Shown one piece after another: positions 32,019-40,329 of a DNA stretch of 64,000 nt (the first letter of the stretch is position 1; the number at the start of each line of letters is the position of its first letter). Under the pieces are notes generated by a model. It searched no databases. It worked only from the letters and a program-made list of their open reading frames with translations, and was not told the DNA's origin. Both the position numbers and the translations under genes were made by a program. Source of the stretch: Candidatus Kuenenbacteria bacterium (GTDB lineage: Bacteria > Patescibacteriota > Patescibacteriia > UBA11705 > JABHMO01); NCBI GenBank assembly GCA_013202715.1, contig JABMRF010000023.1, positions 2,327 through 66,326 of the forward strand, read 5' to 3'.

Positions 32019-33998
32019 TTATTCTAAATCTTCTCCTTTTTGACCTCTCACAAACTTTCGTTCAGTTGCCCTATTCTTTGTTCTATTTTTAACTTTTTTA
32101 CTTCGCCCTTTCTCTATCTTTGGCCTGAACTTTGGTGATTCATCCGGCCGTTGATCAACCTCTTGGTCAGCTGGCGCTCGATGATAGGATTTGGTTCTTG
32201 ATTTTCCTACTTTTTCAAATTTTCCTTTTGTCTTTCTGCCCTTTTTCAAAGTTTCTCTACCCATTGATTGTCGTTGCTCAGTTAATGTTCCTGATTTGGT
32301 TGATTTAATAAATTCTGGCGGTGGTGGTGGTGGTGGATCAGGTGGGTCATGAATCGAATCATCATCATCATCATCTTCTTCTTCTTCCTTGTCTTTATCG
32401 GGTGGCGGTGGAAAATCTTCTTTTTTCCCTTTCGGCGGGAATTCTCCATAATTCTGAGGATCTACAACTCCATGCTCATCAATTATGATTGCTTTGTCTT
32501 TTCGATGAGTCACAAAGGTTTCTTCTTCCGGTGTTTCATCTTTTGGAACTGATGGCAATTTAATTCCAATTTCCCCTGTTTCAAGTTCAAACTTATATCT
32601 ATCGTGGACAGGCTTTGGAGTTGGCCTTGGTACTGGGACAGGTTCTGGCTCCGGCTCCTGTTCAAGATCAAATTCAATTTCTGGCACTACAATATCTACC
32701 TCTTTTTCTTCCAATGGTGGCTCCGGCGGAATTTCCCTAACAATGTCATCAGCTTCAAAAGCAACCACAAGTGCAACATCAACCCCTCGACGACTTTCAA
32801 ATACTTGGTTAAGTAAATTTCTTTCCTCCTCTGTTAATTTTTCCAAATTCAAATGTCCACGATTATAATTTCTAATAAATGTATGTAACTGTTCATCGTT
32901 TAAGCCAAATTCTTTTTTTAATAATTCATCAACTCCGTCTTTTTCCAACCATTCTCCATCAACATCAGCACCAACCTTGTCTTCATCCCCTCTCATAATT
33001 TCAAAATCTTTTATGCCCAGTTCATCTAAAACTTCTCTCACAGTTGCTTCTCCAAGATCTCCGCGACCATGCTGCAGCTCACGGTTTTTATCAAGATTTC
33101 CCTCCGAACTACCCTTACCTGTCAACTTAACATAAACTGCTTTAATCTCTTCAACAGATTTGCCCTGTTCCTCTGCTTGCGTTCTTAGTTCTGTTCTAAA
33201 ATACTCCTTTAATGCCTCCTTTTGTTCCGGAGATATTTTTTTTGCTTCATATCTTTTTGACCAATCCACTTTTAGATCAAACTGATCCCCTTTGGAAAAT
33301 AATGTCTCAGGATTTGGCAGGGTTTCAGTTGAAGGATCATTTCCCGTCCGCATTGACTCTTGATCAATCTTCACCGTTGTTTTATTAAGTTTAACTCTTG
33401 GTTTTATTTTCAAATCTTTTCCGGCCAATGGATCAACTTCCACTGCTTCTTCTGGCTCAGCCTCTCCAATCCCCTCTTCCTTTGATACTTTTATCCCCTT
33501 TGGGTATTTGACCGTAAACTCATGACCTTCTGCCTCTTCCAGATTTTGAGCCGGTGCCTGTTCACTTGAAGATTGTTCATCTCTTTGAGTAGCCTCTACA
33601 TCTGGTATCGGAGTGACCATCAGCATTATGGCCGCCAAGGCGCCTCTTAACCACTTATTACCCGGTAAATTGGATAATGTTTTTAAAAATTTTTTAAATC
33701 CCTTAACGTCTTCTGCTGTTTTTAATTCTTTAAGACGCAATTCTTGCATTTGCTCGACAAACTTATTCGCGTCTGCTTCAGATATATTTTTTTCCCTAAA
33801 CGCTTGCCTCCACTGTTCAGGGGATAATCTCAAAGCCAGCTCCTTGTAGTCCTCAGAAGTCAATTGTTTTCCTTTTGGTAAAGTTTCAATTGGTTGCGCA
33901 CCTTCTTTGTAATACTGAGGATATTCTAAATCCAATTCCTCCTCTCCGCCTGCCGGCGCGCGATTTTCGTCAATTGATTGTTGGTCAAGATTTGCCAT
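32019..33998 (-). CDS. Large low-complexity protein: acidic/Pro-rich core with a Lys/Arg-rich basic C-terminal tail
   Basis: 659 aa with EPEPEPVPVPRPTPKPV, EEEEDDDDDDSIHDPPDPPPPPPPE and a basic tail KGRKTKGKFEKVGKSRTKS...KKVKNRTKNR. No signal peptide. Confidence 0.5.
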   Translation of the reverse strand: MANLDQQSIDENRAPAGGEEELDLEYPQYYKEGAQPIETLPKGKQLTSEDYKELALRLSPEQWRQAFREKNISEADANKFVEQMQELRLKELKTAEDVKGFKKFLKTLSNLPGNKWLRGALAAIMLMVTPIPDVEATQRDEQSSSEQAPAQNLEEAEGHEFTVKYPKGIKVSKEEGIGEAEPEEAVEVDPLAGKDLKIKPRVKLNKTTVKIDQESMRTGNDPSTETLPNPETLFSKGDQFDLKVDWSKRYEAKKISPEQKEALKEYFRTELRTQAEEQGKSVEEIKAVYVKLTGKGSSEGNLDKNRELQHGRGDLGEATVREVLDELGIKDFEIMRGDEDKVGADVDGEWLEKDGVDELLKKEFGLNDEQLHTFIRNYNRGHLNLEKLTEEERNLLNQVFESRRGVDVALVVAFEADDIVREIPPEPPLEEKEVDIVVPEIEFDLEQEPEPEPVPVPRPTPKPVHDRYKFELETGEIGIKLPSVPKDETPEEETFVTHRKDKAIIIDEHGVVDPQNYGEFPPKGKKEDFPPPPDKDKEEEEDDDDDDSIHDPPDPPPPPPPEFIKSTKSGTLTEQRQSMGRETLKKGRKTKGKFEKVGKSRTKSYHRAPADQEVDQRPDESPKFRPKIEKGRSKKVKNRTKNRATERKFVRGQKGEDLE

Positions 33999-34021: not shown

Positions 34022-34228
34022 TTATTTGTTTCCTGATATCTTCCTCACTTTTTTCAATTTTTTTTCATCTTCTTTTTTTATTTTTTCTTTTTTTTTCCAA
34101 AATGAAAACTTCGTTAAAATTTCTTTCAGCCAAACAGAAGTATAAGCCTTTCCGACTGGATCTTTGATTAATTTTTCATATTCAGCCTTTTCTTCAGGTG
34201 TTGCACTAAAATCATTATTGTTTGTCAT
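34022..34228 (-). CDS. Small basic protein (hypothetical)
   Basis: 68 aa with a K-rich C-terminus. Weak support. Confidence 0.3.
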   Translation of the reverse strand: MTNNNDFSATPEEKAEYEKLIKDPVGKAYTSVWLKEILTKFSFWKKKEKIKKEDEKKLKKVRKISGNK

Positions 34229-34230
34229 AT

Positions 34231-34779
34231 TTAACTATCTAAAAATAATTGTAATTTACAAAAACAAGCCATAGTCGGACCGTCAGTAATTTCACCGGCC
34301 TTGATCATGTTTCCCAATTGCTCAAGAGTAACTTTTTTCGTTTCCAAAAACTCATTATAATCAGGCTTAATTTCCTTGGTAGTGGGTTCAACCTCACGAG
34401 CAACATAGACATGACCACGTTGGTTGGAATAACTATTCGCCGTATAAAACTCACCAATCTTTTCCCAATTGTCCGATTGCAAACTAACCTCTTCCGCCAT
34501 TTCCCGTTTCGCAGCCGCCAGAGGGGTTTCATTTTTTTCAATATCAATTCCACCCGATGGCAGTTCCCAGGTATATTCTTTGGTAGGATATCGATATTGG
34601 CCGACTAGATAAACTTCATTATCTTTTGTAAGTGGAATAACAATGACAAAATCTGCATAATCCATTACAAAATATTTGCATTCATTTCCATCAGGCAATG
34701 CAACATCATCCTCCAATATTTTATACCAGGGATTTTCGTGAACAAGTTTACTTTTAATTGTTTTCCAGAACTTTTCCAT
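34231..34779 (-). CDS. NUDIX hydrolase (ADP-ribose pyrophosphatase-like)
   Basis: Nudix box LPSGGIDIEKNETPLAAAKREMAEEVSL. Confidence 0.8.
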   Translation of the reverse strand: MEKFWKTIKSKLVHENPWYKILEDDVALPDGNECKYFVMDYADFVIVIPLTKDNEVYLVGQYRYPTKEYTWELPSGGIDIEKNETPLAAAKREMAEEVSLQSDNWEKIGEFYTANSYSNQRGHVYVAREVEPTTKEIKPDYNEFLETKKVTLEQLGNMIKAGEITDGPTMACFCKLQLFLDS

Positions 34780-34782
34780 ACT

Positions 34783-36555
34783 TTATTCAAACAGTAATTT
34801 CAAATTTGGATACTGCTGTCTTAACTTGTCCTGTTCAGTCACAGAAATATCTTTGCTAAAATAAATAACACCGCCGATAGATTTCGGAAGTTTTAATCCT
34901 TCTACCGAGGTAAGGCTACCAAGATCAAGATTACCGCCAATAGATTCCGGAAGTTTTAGTCCTTCTGCCGAGGTAAGGCTACCAAGAGTAAGCCAACCGC
35001 CAATAGATTCCGAAAATTTTAGTCCTTCTGCCGAGGTAAGGCTACCAAGTTCAAGATCGCCGCCAATAGACCCTGGAAGTTTTAATCCTTCTGCCGAGGT
35101 AAGGCTACTAAGCTCAAGATAGCCGCCAACAGATTCCGGAAGTTTTAGTCCGTCTACTGAGGCAAGTCGACTAAGATCAAGATCGCCACTAATAGCTTCA
35201 GGAAGTTTTAACACTTTTGCCGAGGAAAGAAGATCAAGCACAAGATCGCCGTGATGATACTTTATGTTTCCACTCAAAGCTATTGCTTTTGTTGTACTGA
35301 TTTGAAACTTTGGTATGCCAAGAATATGGGACAGATCCGCTCTCATATCCCTACCAGAAAAAATTTCACATATTCGCGGATCTTTTTCATAACCAAATCC
35401 TTCAATCTTGCCGTCAAACTCATAGAGAAAGCGGAGATCGTCCATGGATAGTTCTTCGCTAGCATTATTTTTTGCTTCCAACTCTGTCAACCGCTTCATA
35501 GCTGCTGATTTACTTTTGTATCTCTCCCCCTCCTTTCCGAATTTATTGAGCTTGTCATCTAATATATCTGTATTTGCAATATGTGGATCAAGATTTTGTT
35601 GAGCTGCCACTCCTCTTACTTCGGCAATATTTTCGCCTTCCATACGAATAGCAAGCCTAGGTATTATTGGATTACCTTGTTTATCATGAGAATAATAGAC
35701 ATAAAAGTCTCCGTTCTCGAGCTGTGCTTCTGCGGTACTTTCTCCAGCTGTACACCAACCTGTTCCATGTCCTTGGAGCGATTCTACCAATGGCATATGA
35801 TCCGCTCCCTCATTGTATTTAATCCAGTCACCCGTGGTTATCATCAGTTCGCTTTCTTCTGCTGGCGTAACTTTTTCAATTGCCCAGGCATAAAGCTTAC
35901 CAAAATTCGCGCCCTGCAACAGTTTCTTGAATTCTGGATCATCTTCTGCTAACGAGACATTTTCTTTATTAATTTTTTTTGCCATTGCATCCACAACGTA
36001 AGCCAAAGCTTCTCTATTTAGATCAGGAAATGGAGCTACTGTATCTTTTCTTCTTTTACCAAAAACTTGCTTTTCTTTGTCAAAAGTTGATAATTTTACC
36101 ATACCGGTAAAAGCCCAGTATTTTGCCCAGGTTGGAAAACTAATTGAGTCTTCTGAGGTAAAATAGTCAAGCCAATTGTCCAAGGTTGATTTCTGGTCAG
36201 CAACAATGACCTCTTCTGCCTGCCGCCGTACTTCATCAGTAATTTCAACATCACCATGTCCCAGCTCTCTCGCTAATCTTCTTTGGGTTTCATAGTAGCT
36301 GTCAGGAATATTTTCAGGTTTAATGACAAGTGATTTGTAGTAACTTTGCTTGATTCTATCCAAAACGCGTGGGTCATCTCTGTGGCCCATGTGAGTTTTT
36401 TCAATAACGCCTAGCCAGTCAGAAATTTTTTCTGCCGGTTTTTGAGATGATTTTTCACCCTTTTTCCTTTTTCTTGATTTCTCGTGTTCTACTGGAGGAG
36501 TGGTATGAAGATTGGGATTTCTTTCGTGCAAAAATTGTGGACCTTGCATACTCAT
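34783..36555 (-). CDS. Hypothetical protein with C-terminal tandem 22-aa LRR-like repeats
   Basis: C-terminal x6 repeats of GLKLPESIGGxLxLGSLTSAE. The N-terminal ~400 aa match no known domain. No signal peptide. Confidence 0.55.
   Translation of the reverse strand: MSMQGPQFLHERNPNLHTTPPVEHEKSRKRKKGEKSSQKPAEKISDWLGVIEKTHMGHRDDPRVLDRIKQSYYKSLVIKPENIPDSYYETQRRLARELGHGDVEITDEVRRQAEEVIVADQKSTLDNWLDYFTSEDSISFPTWAKYWAFTGMVKLSTFDKEKQVFGKRRKDTVAPFPDLNREALAYVVDAMAKKINKENVSLAEDDPEFKKLLQGANFGKLYAWAIEKVTPAEESELMITTGDWIKYNEGADHMPLVESLQGHGTGWCTAGESTAEAQLENGDFYVYYSHDKQGNPIIPRLAIRMEGENIAEVRGVAAQQNLDPHIANTDILDDKLNKFGKEGERYKSKSAAMKRLTELEAKNNASEELSMDDLRFLYEFDGKIEGFGYEKDPRICEIFSGRDMRADLSHILGIPKFQISTTKAIALSGNIKYHHGDLVLDLLSSAKVLKLPEAISGDLDLSRLASVDGLKLPESVGGYLELSSLTSAEGLKLPGSIGGDLELGSLTSAEGLKFSESIGGWLTLGSLTSAEGLKLPESIGGNLDLGSLTSVEGLKLPKSIGGVIYFSKDISVTEQDKLRQQYPNLKLLFE
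34861..35235. repeat. Six near-identical tandem 66-bp repeats inside the CDS (encode the LRR-like units)
   Basis: Repeats of ...gccaatagattccggaagttttagtccttctgccgaggtaaggctaccaag... with only a few substitutions per unit. Confidence 0.8.
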
Positions 36556-36571
36556 ATATGTGTTATCTTAT

Positions 36572-36979
36572 TTATTTCAAAATTTTTCTTATTTTCTCTG
36601 CCACTTGCTCAATCTCCCCGTCTTGATACGGCTCCCCTACAAAATGCTCATGCCCATCATCCTCTTTCCTTGGAATAATATGAAAATGTAAATGAGGAAC
36701 TAACTGACCTGCAACTGAGCCATTATTTACAAGTAAATTAAAGCCTTTATAATCCAAAGACTCACAAACTCCTTTTGCTATTTTTGGAATAATGCTGATC
36801 AGAGTCCGCAAATCTTCACCGGACGTATCCAATAAGTTTTCAGAATGATTTTTGGAAATGACCAAGGTGTGGCCAGAATTATCAGGATTGATCTCTAAAA
36901 AAGCAAGAACATCTTTATCCTCGTAAACTTTATGCGCTGGAATTTCTCCATTTACAATTTTACAAAACAAGCAATCGGT
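36572..36979 (-). CDS. HIT-family (histidine triad) nucleotide hydrolase
   Basis: MTDCLFCKIVNGEIPA...HLHFHIIPR (HxHxHxx). Start set at the MTDC Met. Confidence 0.9.
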   Translation of the reverse strand, partial: TDCLFCKIVNGEIPAHKVYEDKDVLAFLEINPDNSGHTLVISKNHSENLLDTSGEDLRTLISIIPKIAKGVCESLDYKGFNLLVNNGSVAGQLVPHLHFHIIPRKEDDGHEHFVGEPYQDGEIEQVAEKIRKILK

Positions 36980-36987
36980 CATATATA

Positions 36988-37060
36988 TAGTCAAAAGTTT
37001 TAAGTCAATAGTCTAGAGTTGCTTACAACTTTTGACTTTTGACTTTTGACTCTAGACTTG
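36988..37060. repeat. Palindromic intergenic element (MITE-like family)
   Basis: tagtcaaaagttttaagtcaatagtctagagttgcttacaacttttgacttttgacttttgactctagact. Confidence 0.7.
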
Positions 37061-37678: not shown

Positions 37679-37755
37679 GCTTATTAAAACAATATAGCAA
37701 TTTAACAGTTAGACAATAAAATGCCGCGTAGCGGCATCCCGCTACGCGGGACAAT

Positions 37756-38220: not shown

Positions 38221-40329
38221 TTAATTTCCGCCTACGTTAATTCCGCTGATAAAATTCGCTGTAAAGGCAAATTTTTCACCTAGCAGATTTGCGTACTTAT
38301 CAAAAATTCGGACGTGTGGCGCGCCACTTGGTCCGGCACCGGTTATAATATCAGTCTTGCCGTCCCGATTGTAGTCAAATCCGGCAACTGATACTCCACC
38401 ACGAAAATTTGTACCGTAAGCCATGAAACTTGCTAAACGAACACCGGCAGAATTAAACGCTTGGACATGCGGACCACCGCCATTGCCAGCACCTGTTATT
38501 ATATCTAAAATACCGTCATTGTCAATGTCTCCAAGACCAATATTCACTCCGCCTAAAAATTGTGGGGAATAAACTACGTGACTGGTTTTCAAGTTTCCCT
38601 GGCCATCAAAGATTTTAACTTTTGGCAAAATTCCGTGGCGCGGAGCGACGATTATCTCAATTTCATTATCGCCATCAACATCACCGACGGCAACATTCAA
38701 TCCTTCTTTGTAACTCTTATTAAAAGCATAAAATTCTTTTTTTAATTTTCCATCCTGATCAAATATTTTTATGACCGGATCATAATTCGATTGAGGAGCA
38801 ACTACAAGTTCCACTTTCCCGTCATTATCCACGTCACCGGCAGAAACATTTACACCACCACGAAACTCAGTTGGAAACGCGAGAAAACTGCTGAACATTT
38901 TTTCATTCATATCCACAGCCCGCACATAAGGTTTGTCACCCTTGACCGTTCCGGTTACAATATCTTGTAATCCATCGAGGTTTAAATCAGCCAATTGAAA
39001 ATTCATCCCATGATATTTTGAGCTGGAAAAAAGACTGATCGTTTTCTGCACATTGAACTCGGAATCAAAAACCGTAATGCTGGCACTTTTGTCAGACTGC
39101 CCGGAAACAAAAATCTGGGCGTTTGTATTTATATTTACTATTGGAGTTGATACTACCGGTGGAGTAGTTGTAGCGGGAGCCGGAGTGCTTACGGCCGGAG
39201 GAGTACTTACTACTGACGTTGAGCTTCCTCCGATGGCTCTTTCGATCGCTTTTCTAATATTTAATAATCCTTTACCCGCTTTATTTTTGTACTTTAAATC
39301 TTGTAAAAACAGAACACTGCTCTCTTCTGTTATAATCTCAATAATCTGTTTCGGAGTTAATGACGGATCAACTGATTTCAACAAGGCCGCAGCGCCAGAT
39401 ACCAATGCGACAGAAAAAGAAGTTCCGTTCCAGCCCTCAGAATAATACTCCTTGAAATCATTATAACTATTATCCTGATAAAGCAAGCTCACGACATCTT
39501 CGCCAGGAGCGGCAATATCAATACAACCCTCTCCATAATTTGAAAATGCAGCCACATTGTGTTTTTTTGTACTTGAGAGTACACCCAAAATCCTGTTTAC
39601 AGAAAACTCTTGGTCATAACAAATTGGATAAATAGGATTATTGGTCATATCTGACCCAGAGACTACTCCAGTGTCAGTTACATTTCCGGCCGCAGCAACA
39701 ATTAAAACTCCATTATTATAAGCATTAACAATACTCCCCCTTAATTTCTCACTATATTCATAACCTCCAAAACTAAAATTAATAATATCAGCTCCGTTTG
39801 CAACTGCATAATCAACCGCCTCGGAAACATTAGTAGAATTACCATAACCCGTTGCATCCAAAACAAGCAGTGGCATTATTTTTACATTGTTTGTAATTCC
39901 TTTTATTCCCTGACCATTGTCATGAATTGCAGAAATTATCCCGGCGACAAAAGTTCCATGATTCACTGCATCGGCATTATAACCACCGGTTAATGTTGGA
40001 TTTGGACTATAATATGAATCAACAAAATTCCAGCCATTTACATCATCAATATATCCATTGTTATCATTATCAACTCTATCACCGACAACCTCATTTGTAT
40101 TTTTCCAAATATTTCCTTTGATATCCGGATGGTTCAAGTCGATTCCAGTATCCAAAACGGCAACCACAACTGAACTGTCTCCCTTTGTAGTTTCCCACGC
40201 TTGCGGTGCTTTGATAGTATCCAAATACCACTGTTTATAATAATAGGGATCGCCAGCTGCTAAACCGGTTTGAGCCATTATAAAACTTAATAAAAACAGA
40301 ACAAAACTACCTTTTAGTAACTTTTTCAT
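38221..40329 (-). CDS. Secreted subtilisin-like serine protease (S8) with C-terminal FG-GAP/VCBS-like repeats
   Basis: Signal peptide. Catalytic triad contexts VLDTGID, HGTFVAG, GTSFSVA. Five or more FG-GAP-like repeats (DLNLDGLQDIVTG, DVDNDGKVELVVAP, DIDNDGILDIITGAG, DYNRDGKTDIITGAG). Confidence 0.9.
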   Translation of the reverse strand: MKKLLKGSFVLFLLSFIMAQTGLAAGDPYYYKQWYLDTIKAPQAWETTKGDSSVVVAVLDTGIDLNHPDIKGNIWKNTNEVVGDRVDNDNNGYIDDVNGWNFVDSYYSPNPTLTGGYNADAVNHGTFVAGIISAIHDNGQGIKGITNNVKIMPLLVLDATGYGNSTNVSEAVDYAVANGADIINFSFGGYEYSEKLRGSIVNAYNNGVLIVAAAGNVTDTGVVSGSDMTNNPIYPICYDQEFSVNRILGVLSSTKKHNVAAFSNYGEGCIDIAAPGEDVVSLLYQDNSYNDFKEYYSEGWNGTSFSVALVSGAAALLKSVDPSLTPKQIIEIITEESSVLFLQDLKYKNKAGKGLLNIRKAIERAIGGSSTSVVSTPPAVSTPAPATTTPPVVSTPIVNINTNAQIFVSGQSDKSASITVFDSEFNVQKTISLFSSSKYHGMNFQLADLNLDGLQDIVTGTVKGDKPYVRAVDMNEKMFSSFLAFPTEFRGGVNVSAGDVDNDGKVELVVAPQSNYDPVIKIFDQDGKLKKEFYAFNKSYKEGLNVAVGDVDGDNEIEIIVAPRHGILPKVKIFDGQGNLKTSHVVYSPQFLGGVNIGLGDIDNDGILDIITGAGNGGGPHVQAFNSAGVRLASFMAYGTNFRGGVSVAGFDYNRDGKTDIITGAGPSGAPHVRIFDKYANLLGEKFAFTANFISGINVGGN

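Follow-up and report, generated by a model that had tools for sequence, protein, structure and literature searches.

HQ571_03055 of Candidatus Kuenenbacteria, a probable two-module protein with a conserved N-terminal domain and an IRREKO-like leucine-rich repeat tail

Several described systems provide a framework for HQ571_03055, a gene in a 64,000-nucleotide stretch of a Candidatus Kuenenbacteria metagenome-assembled genome (MAG) (GCA_013202715.1, contig JABMRF010000023.1, positions 2,327–66,326; hereafter the window). Leucine-rich repeat (LRR) proteins of the IRREKO class are built from 21-residue units with the consensus LxxLxLxxNxLxxLDLxx(N/L/Q)xx (Matsushima et al. 2010, PMC2946307). Among the targets of diversity-generating retroelements (DGRs) in the candidate phyla radiation (CPR), few motifs have been recorded upstream of the variable regions, and a "PcfJ-like protein" is one of them (Wu et al. 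2018, PMC5758913). These targets lack membrane or other recognizable domains (Roux et al. 2021, PMC8144416), and their function is acknowledged to be an open question. RadC is a recognized component of polyvalent proteins, for which delivery into the host cell has been suggested (Iyer et al. 2017, PMC5512222); the paper describing them mentions neither PcfJ nor LRRs. LRR proteins and the CPR DGR-target family are already known; HQ571_03055 joins their features in one protein.

HQ571_03055 occupies an intact open reading frame (ORF) of 590 aa, counting the stop codon, on the reverse strand (34783–36555) and corresponds, with a 100% match, to an NCBI annotation of 588 aa as a hypothetical protein. 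It probably encodes a soluble two-module protein, in which a conserved head carries an interchangeable, diversifying LRR binding tail of adjustable specificity that would direct the head to a diverse partner. Module 1 (res. 1–435; 35251–36555, reverse strand) is the conserved, family-defining N-terminal domain (N-domain), mostly helical, with an α/β core (res. 237–333; 35557–35847, reverse strand) that is probably a distant relative of PcfJ of conjugative plasmids and phages. Module 2 (res. 436–590) is predicted to be a short β-solenoid of six 21-residue (63-bp) IRREKO-like LRR units (res. 436–561; 34873–35250, reverse strand) followed by a non-repeat C-terminal cap (res. 562–590; 34786–34872, reverse strand), and would provide the binding surface. 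In the best-supported reading, the head joins an interchangeable recognition module at about res. 403–440, and the module is selected for diversity.

The tandem array in HQ571_03055 is real and lies far above chance. Tandem Repeats Finder (TRF) places it at 34870–35229, with a period of 63, 5.7 copies, 82% matches and a score of 440. Across lags of 57 to 71, the self-match reaches 0.74 at lag 63 and is at most 0.30 elsewhere, with 0.28 at lag 66. The six units span 35188–35250, 35125–35187, 35062–35124, 34999–35061, 34936–34998 and 34873–34935 on the reverse strand, and their 21-aa spacing holds throughout the family. A first-pass annotation of this DNA had rightly recognized a six-unit tandem array, but took the units to be near-identical repeats of 66 bp and 22 aa and suggested recent expansion or concerted evolution. 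The period and the low self-match at lag 66 set the unit at 63 bp and 21 aa. Pairwise identity among the copies is 68–86% in nucleotide and 48–81% in protein sequence, far from near-identical, and unit identity within proteins (0.66) exceeds that between proteins (0.54) by a modest margin that does not bear out a recent expansion.

The consensus of the unit, derived family-wide from 1,383–1,552 units, is G-x-L-x-L-x-x-L-T-S-A-E-G-L-x-L-P-x-S-I-G. Re-phased to Ala11, this unit fits eight of the nine IRREKO positions (pattern positions 1, 4, 6, 9, 14, 15, 16 and 19; fit of 0.55–1.00 each), with a mean fit of 0.79 versus a median of 0.32 across all registers, and the individual units of HQ571_03055 score 6–8 out of 9. 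Further points of likeness are the 21-residue length, the nested 10/11 periodicity L-x-L-x-x-(N/S/L) and the bacterial distribution. The family unit differs from IRREKO at pattern position 11 (fit 0.01), which is Gly rather than hydrophobic, the hydrophobic residue standing at position 10 ahead of a conserved Gly-Gly, and by a conserved Pro at position 7. In the PDB, a profile of diverse family members matches only LRR proteins, namely SlrP (0.012) and internalin A (0.023–0.028). HQ571_03055 itself has no Pfam LRR match at E ≤ 1, and Pfam LRR models rarely match its relatives (LRR_14 in 3 of 40, LRR_5 in 1 of 42). The Pfam labels Glutaredoxin2_C, HNH_5 and MoeA_C, together with the JGI source name 'phage protein U', recur only in members with long arrays; we rejected them as probable repeat-driven noise.

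We built an AlphaFold2 model of HQ571_03055 with 40 homologues, which has an overall predicted local distance difference test score (pLDDT) of 88.3 and a predicted template modeling score of 0.75; the model of the N-domain has a pLDDT of 85.9. In the full-length model, each 21-aa unit of the array folds into one short strand pair with no helix (pLDDT about 85–95). A helix-containing cap closes the array; DSSP assigns it a strand, a helix (res. 572–581) and a second strand, and it terminates in the family motif R..YP.L. Read as a seventh unit, the cap region is 27–37% identical to units 1–6. Neither of the two models searched with Foldseek matched a PDB entry at E ≤ 0.001, and the top match of the full model is the Leptospira LRR protein 4u06 (E 0.049). 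The confident repeat solenoid, the eight IRREKO positions and the exclusively LRR profile matches uphold the LRR-like nature of the units that had been read from the sequence. HQ571_03055 resembles SlrP and IpaH, which combine an LRR with a NEL ligase, in pairing a short-unit bacterial LRR array, as a putative recognition module, with a second module, and SlrP is the best PDB sequence match to the repeats. It differs from them in that the LRR is C-terminal, reversing the order, that the partner domain is unrelated to NEL, and that a type III secretion signal or system is lacking.

Variation among the units is sharply position-specific. Within units 2–6, positions 2, 4, 6 and 18 have accumulated 30 non-synonymous and 1 synonymous codon differences, and ten framework positions 0 non-synonymous and 16 synonymous ones; residues L3, L5, L8, S10, A11, G13, L14, L16 and P17 are fixed. 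The same pattern is found family-wide, where the commonest residue accounts for 27–37% at positions 2, 4 and 6 versus 95–97% at L5, L8 and L14, and the three variable positions are enriched in D, N, S, Y and R. Strand geometry suggests that these x residues of the β-strand x-L-x-L-x point outward. The 120 closest homologues have between 3 and 22 units. We compared 105 pairs of relatives whose termini match and whose N-domains show 95% identity or more: 17 pairs have the same length and 88 are unequal, 35 by an exact multiple of 21 aa and 53 otherwise, many of these lying within 1–2 aa of such a multiple (some units are 20 aa long). A single internal gap of 63 aa is all that separates P0058 from P0082, which are otherwise 100% identical; one 63-aa gap likewise occurs between P0013 and P0057, at 99.4% identity, and one of 21 aa between P0026 and P0064. 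In the proposed mechanism, the framework residues would stay constant, the outward strand positions 2, 4 and 6 would vary, and whole units would be gained or lost, as they are in near-identical strains of relatives.

A second type of tail links the family to DGRs. In about half of the genome loci, a ~200-aa non-repeat C-terminal domain stands in place of the 21-aa repeats. Neighbor clustering of 83 loci identified a reverse transcriptase (RT) in 9 and an Avd-like protein in 7; matches are to RVT_1 for the RTs (1e-22 to 1e-24) and to bAvd for the Avds (1e-15 to 1e-16), and all 11 loci with an RT and/or Avd neighbor carry the non-repeat tail. In five loci, a template repeat (TR) close by matches the final ~150 nt of the family gene, giving TR/variable region (VR) pairs of 132–154 bp. 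Their mismatches fall at template adenines in 15 of 16 cases in L058, 7 of 7 in L044, 19 of 21 in L082, 27 of 33 in L090 and 18 of 24 in L034. Because the mismatches are adenine-biased and accompanied by RT and/or Avd, a DGR signature, the ~200-aa domain is diversified by a DGR. The domain has no Pfam or PDB match that would point to a C-type-lectin fold.

LRR and DGR tails sit on the same head. HQ571_03055 and the DGR target L034 are 58% identical from res. 4 to about res. 402, and the similarity stops at about res. 403–440, where the tails start. This identity argues against unrelated N-domains in the two types. The N-domains of L030 (LRR) and L034 (DGR) are 76% identical and mutual nearest neighbors, and tail types are interleaved among close N-domains. 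Since the same head carries a DGR-hypermutated domain in sister proteins, the LRR array can be viewed as the repeat-based counterpart of the DGR variable region, and the occurrence of a hypermutated tail in close relatives indicates selection for diversity. Compared with CPR DGR targets (category g of Wu et al. 2018, PMC5758913; PMC8144416), HQ571_03055 has the same N-domain, likewise no signal peptide or membrane segment, and a variable C-terminal module, but would draw its diversity from the LRR array and not from retrohoming. It has no DGR variable region, the LRR tail being in its place, and the 64-kb window contains no RT, Avd, template repeat or DGR-type tail. The same N-domain bears yet another tail, the third variant, in L074:4001–5788, a relative labelled 'Candidatus Caenarcanales', whose 21-aa repeats follow another consensus, GDLxLxxSxLTSLPEGLTYVG, nearer canonical bacterial LRRs.

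The N-domain, which the first-pass annotation had left as an uncharacterized domain of 400 aa, measures ~435 aa and has no significant match in Pfam, NCBIfam, PHROG, PADLOC or the PDB, either by sequence or by profile. Searches with it recovered 1,841 representatives of 50%-identity clusters at E ≤ 1e-3, including 1,058 at E ≤ 1e-30. When one genome was scanned per species, 566 loci were confirmed, spread over many Patescibacteria classes and Bdellovibrionota; a few lie in MAGs whose labels read DPANN archaea or other phyla. The gene is accessory and not universal. It is present in the isolate Bdellovibrio sp. HCB185ZH (complete genome) and, as a further search revealed, in isolate KM01. A signal-peptide-like segment is present in each of the six Bdellovibrionota-labelled copies whose N-terminus is complete (L049, L071, L078, L088, L093 and L094), and the unlabelled L091 has a lipobox-like N-terminal segment. 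Essentially all CPR copies begin directly with the conserved N-terminus and have no signal peptide or membrane segment. GenBank phages contain no relative of the N-domain, and the 64-kb window contains no paralogue of HQ571_03055. Some family members match PHROGs, including phrog_2028 (2.6e-8) and phrog_38263 (in 5 members), which carry no assigned function, and tail-fiber PHROGs (phrog_28263, 1.7e-5). CPR-like copies with no signal peptide are also found in nine MAGs labelled 'uncultured Gammaproteobacteria' (L020, L031, L038, L057, L058, L060, L061, L065 and L077). Eight of these have a low GC content of 0.29–0.38 (L020, 0.53), and L058 has the DGR beside the gene; these labels look doubtful.

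The core of the N-domain is marked by the invariant or near-invariant residues W267-C268, G282, P299-R300, E312, R314-G315 and Q320-N321. By eye, its motif GTGWCTAGE...GDFYVYY...PRLAIRMEG..IAEVRG...QN resembles the PcfJ motif EGxxLxHCVG...IVFIR...PYFTLEY....VIQIQGK.N. PcfJ (PF14284; plasmid pCF10 and phages) and the core appear to have in common a collinear strand, helix, (H/W)-C motif, helix and three strands ending in (Q/R)-G..N. They differ in that the HQ571_03055 family has Trp where PcfJ has the His of its HC motif, and in that the flanking helical regions and LRR tail of the family are not found in PcfJ. In a Foldseek search of the N-domain against BFVD, PcfJ-like proteins came first (E 0.025–0.08) and made up 6 of the top 19 matches. 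We also aligned profiles with hhalign, using a PcfJ C-terminal alignment of pCF10, Enterococcus homologues and ten phage proteins. The family core aligned to it with P 0.0048 over 78 collinear columns (score 22.4; decoys 12.7–15.1), the cores from viral contigs with P 3e-4 over 83 columns (score 30.5; reversed decoys P 0.37–0.82), and the family and viral cores merged with P 4.5e-4; overall, decoys gave P 0.18–0.82 and scores of 8.7–15.1 versus 22–30 for the real comparisons. A GNAT fold was considered for the core, and GCN5, the top PDB Foldseek match at E 0.93, was too weak to use. GNAT-like signals recur weakly elsewhere, with several acetyltransferases in BFVD and a Pfam GNAT_acetyltran match of 0.08 at res. 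256–377 of L066:157–2001. We found no functional study of PcfJ in literature searches, which were dominated by C. elegans pCFJ plasmids. PcfJ adjoins a PcfK-like/AcrIIA9-family gene in plasmid pCF10 and in Polaribacter phage Freya_5 (L003:15874–17984, L012:386–2031), and the two form a conserved pair in mobile elements.

Viral contigs carry the core in a different setting. IMG/VR holds 24 relatives, and in 23 of them the core sits inside a much longer ORF, with lengths from 850 to over 4,200 aa. At least six of these giant ORFs also include the following LRR region (L097, L098, L102, L106, L108 and L109); one carries a RadC domain (2e-11) and another matches a solved LRR protein at 9e-6. The occurrence of the core, often with an LRR part, in giant viral-contig ORFs, one of them with RadC, recalls polyvalent proteins. 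HQ571_03055 differs from them as a stand-alone 590-aa chromosomal gene among housekeeping genes. It is a fair possibility, though one we hold at somewhat less than even, that a remotely PcfJ-like head is common to organisms and elements living on other cells, namely CPR episymbionts, Bdellovibrio-type predators (where it is exported) and phages (in giant ORFs), coupled either to a DGR domain or to a copy-number-variable LRR array. If so, the LRR proteins, HQ571_03055 included, would be natural DGR-free equivalents of the CPR DGR targets, and a cross-cell recognition or effector role would be indicated for both types.

In the proposed two-module arrangement, the LRR tail would bring the head to a partner that is diverse or evolves fast; the likeliest such partner is a component of another cell, namely the episymbiont's host, or of an invader. 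Several observations weigh against this reading. The relation to PcfJ is weak, with a best hhalign probability of 40%; Pfam PF14284 matches no member in sets of 40, 42 and 10, even at E ≤ 10, and the PcfJ PHROGs (7484, 8470, 3169 and others) are absent among the 25 families listed of 52. For this reason we regard the core as probably related to PcfJ at a distance and do not count it as a member. HQ571_03055 has no signal peptide, membrane segment or anchor (maximum 19-residue hydropathy 1.08), so contact with another cell would need another export route. Its neighbors are housekeeping genes, and the pairing is not kept in relatives. Differences in copy number between metagenome assemblies could in part be assembly errors in repeats. 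The collections searched also contain no close strain in which variation at the locus could be seen, the nearest relative being 67% identical, and a degenerate search for its C-terminal cap in metagenome contigs gave no match. The variable repeat number anticipated in the first-pass annotation holds for the family, as the close pairs demonstrate, and may extend to this locus.

Where such a protein would act is the point on which the alternatives divide. Lifestyle distribution, the Bdellovibrionota copies with signal peptides and the giant viral ORFs favor a role toward another cell, and the missing export signal of CPR copies favors an intracellular role such as that of a sensor; an interaction of HQ571_03055 with a host, raised in the first-pass annotation, is plausible. 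A secreted or surface adhesin or effector, whose LRR tail contacts the episymbiont's host cell and which acts outside its producer, would suit the occurrence of the family in episymbionts or predators (Patescibacteria, Bdellovibrionota and a few DPANN-labelled MAGs), as well as the signal-peptide-like segments, the lipobox-like segment of L091 and the viral ORF with RadC typical of polyvalent proteins. We consider it unlikely, given the want of a signal peptide, membrane segment or anchor in HQ571_03055 and essentially all CPR copies and of secretion genes adjoining HQ571_03055. A little less likely again is an intracellular invader sensor, in which the variable tail would recognize phage or plasmid proteins and the N-domain would act as effector, as has been proposed for DGR-diversified conflict systems of multicellular bacteria. 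The predicted cytoplasmic location, the interchangeability of the tail with a DGR variable domain, the lack of membrane or other recognizable domains in CPR DGR targets (PMC8144416) and the DGR-diversified putative antigen sensors described elsewhere (PMC10907252) speak for a sensor. HQ571_03055, however, matches no PADLOC defense model, has no NTPase or known effector domain and lies outside any defense island; moreover, the Bdellovibrionota copies, with their signal-peptide-like segments, are predicted to be exported, and the related domain belongs to invaders (plasmids, phages and giant viral ORFs) and not to hosts.

Two further explanations would deprive the variation of a role in recognition or recast it as a switch. 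A housekeeping scaffold whose repeat number drifts neutrally, its variation not being adaptive, would agree with the housekeeping neighbors and the probable co-transcription with the HIT and NUDIX genes described below. It is improbable for an accessory gene whose variation is sharply concentrated at particular positions and whose close relatives have a DGR-hypermutated domain in place of the tail. The first-pass annotation had pointed instead to a contingency locus. In its classical phase-variable form, repeat slippage would turn expression on and off, as tandem repeats within a coding region and a labile unit number among relatives might suggest. We give this hardly any credence: 63 bp is divisible by three, so that gain or loss preserves the frame, the copies are 68–86% identical, and the differences observed between close relatives are all in-frame whole units. 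With a unit that is a multiple of three and imperfect copies, changes alter length and surface, not the reading frame, and the strict on/off sense of a contingency locus does not apply.

The interest of HQ571_03055 lies mainly in what it tells of the CPR DGR-target family and not in the repeats themselves. Its analysis offers three handles on the function of that family: a tractable organism, with signal-peptide copies in the cultivable Bdellovibrio isolates HCB185ZH and KM01; a defined domain boundary at about res. 403–440; and a candidate link to plasmid and phage PcfJ proteins. In terms of annotation, 1,841 cluster representatives of "hypothetical proteins" gain a describable architecture.

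HQ571_03055 is flanked on the same strand by a HIT-family hydrolase gene upstream (36572–36994; 16 bp from the ORF; Pfam HIT 3e-28) and a NUDIX hydrolase gene downstream (34231–34779; 3 bp past the stop codon; Pfam NUDIX 1.7e-14). It is probably co-transcribed with both, as no terminator separates the three genes downstream of a hairpin at 37724–37749. This strong, GC-rich hairpin (11 pairs, 9 of them GC, then a T-run) follows an RmlC-like gene and is terminator-like whichever strand is read; the transcription unit containing HQ571_03055 probably begins there. The relatives L001 and L002 have other neighbor genes, and clustering of the neighbors of the 83 loci yielded no recurrent HIT or NUDIX partner and no conserved neighborhood for the LRR type.

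Farther along the same gene string, a 659-aa ORF (32019–33998, reverse strand) encodes a highly charged, proline-rich protein with runs of PPPPPP, DDDDDD and EPEPEP and no Pfam match. Between it and the NUDIX gene, a T-rich low-complexity tract (34045–34097; TRF period 1–15) lies within a 68-aa ORF (34022–34228). On the other side of the hairpin, a 702-aa subtilase (38221–40329, reverse strand) has FG-GAP repeats at its C-terminus and an N-terminus resembling a signal peptide, and is probably a protease that is secreted or displayed on the surface. Of the 32 2-kb bins of the window (1–64000), 30 have negative GC skew, and the cumulative skew drops almost monotonically to −5.4, a strand bias strong enough to place the whole window within one replichore.

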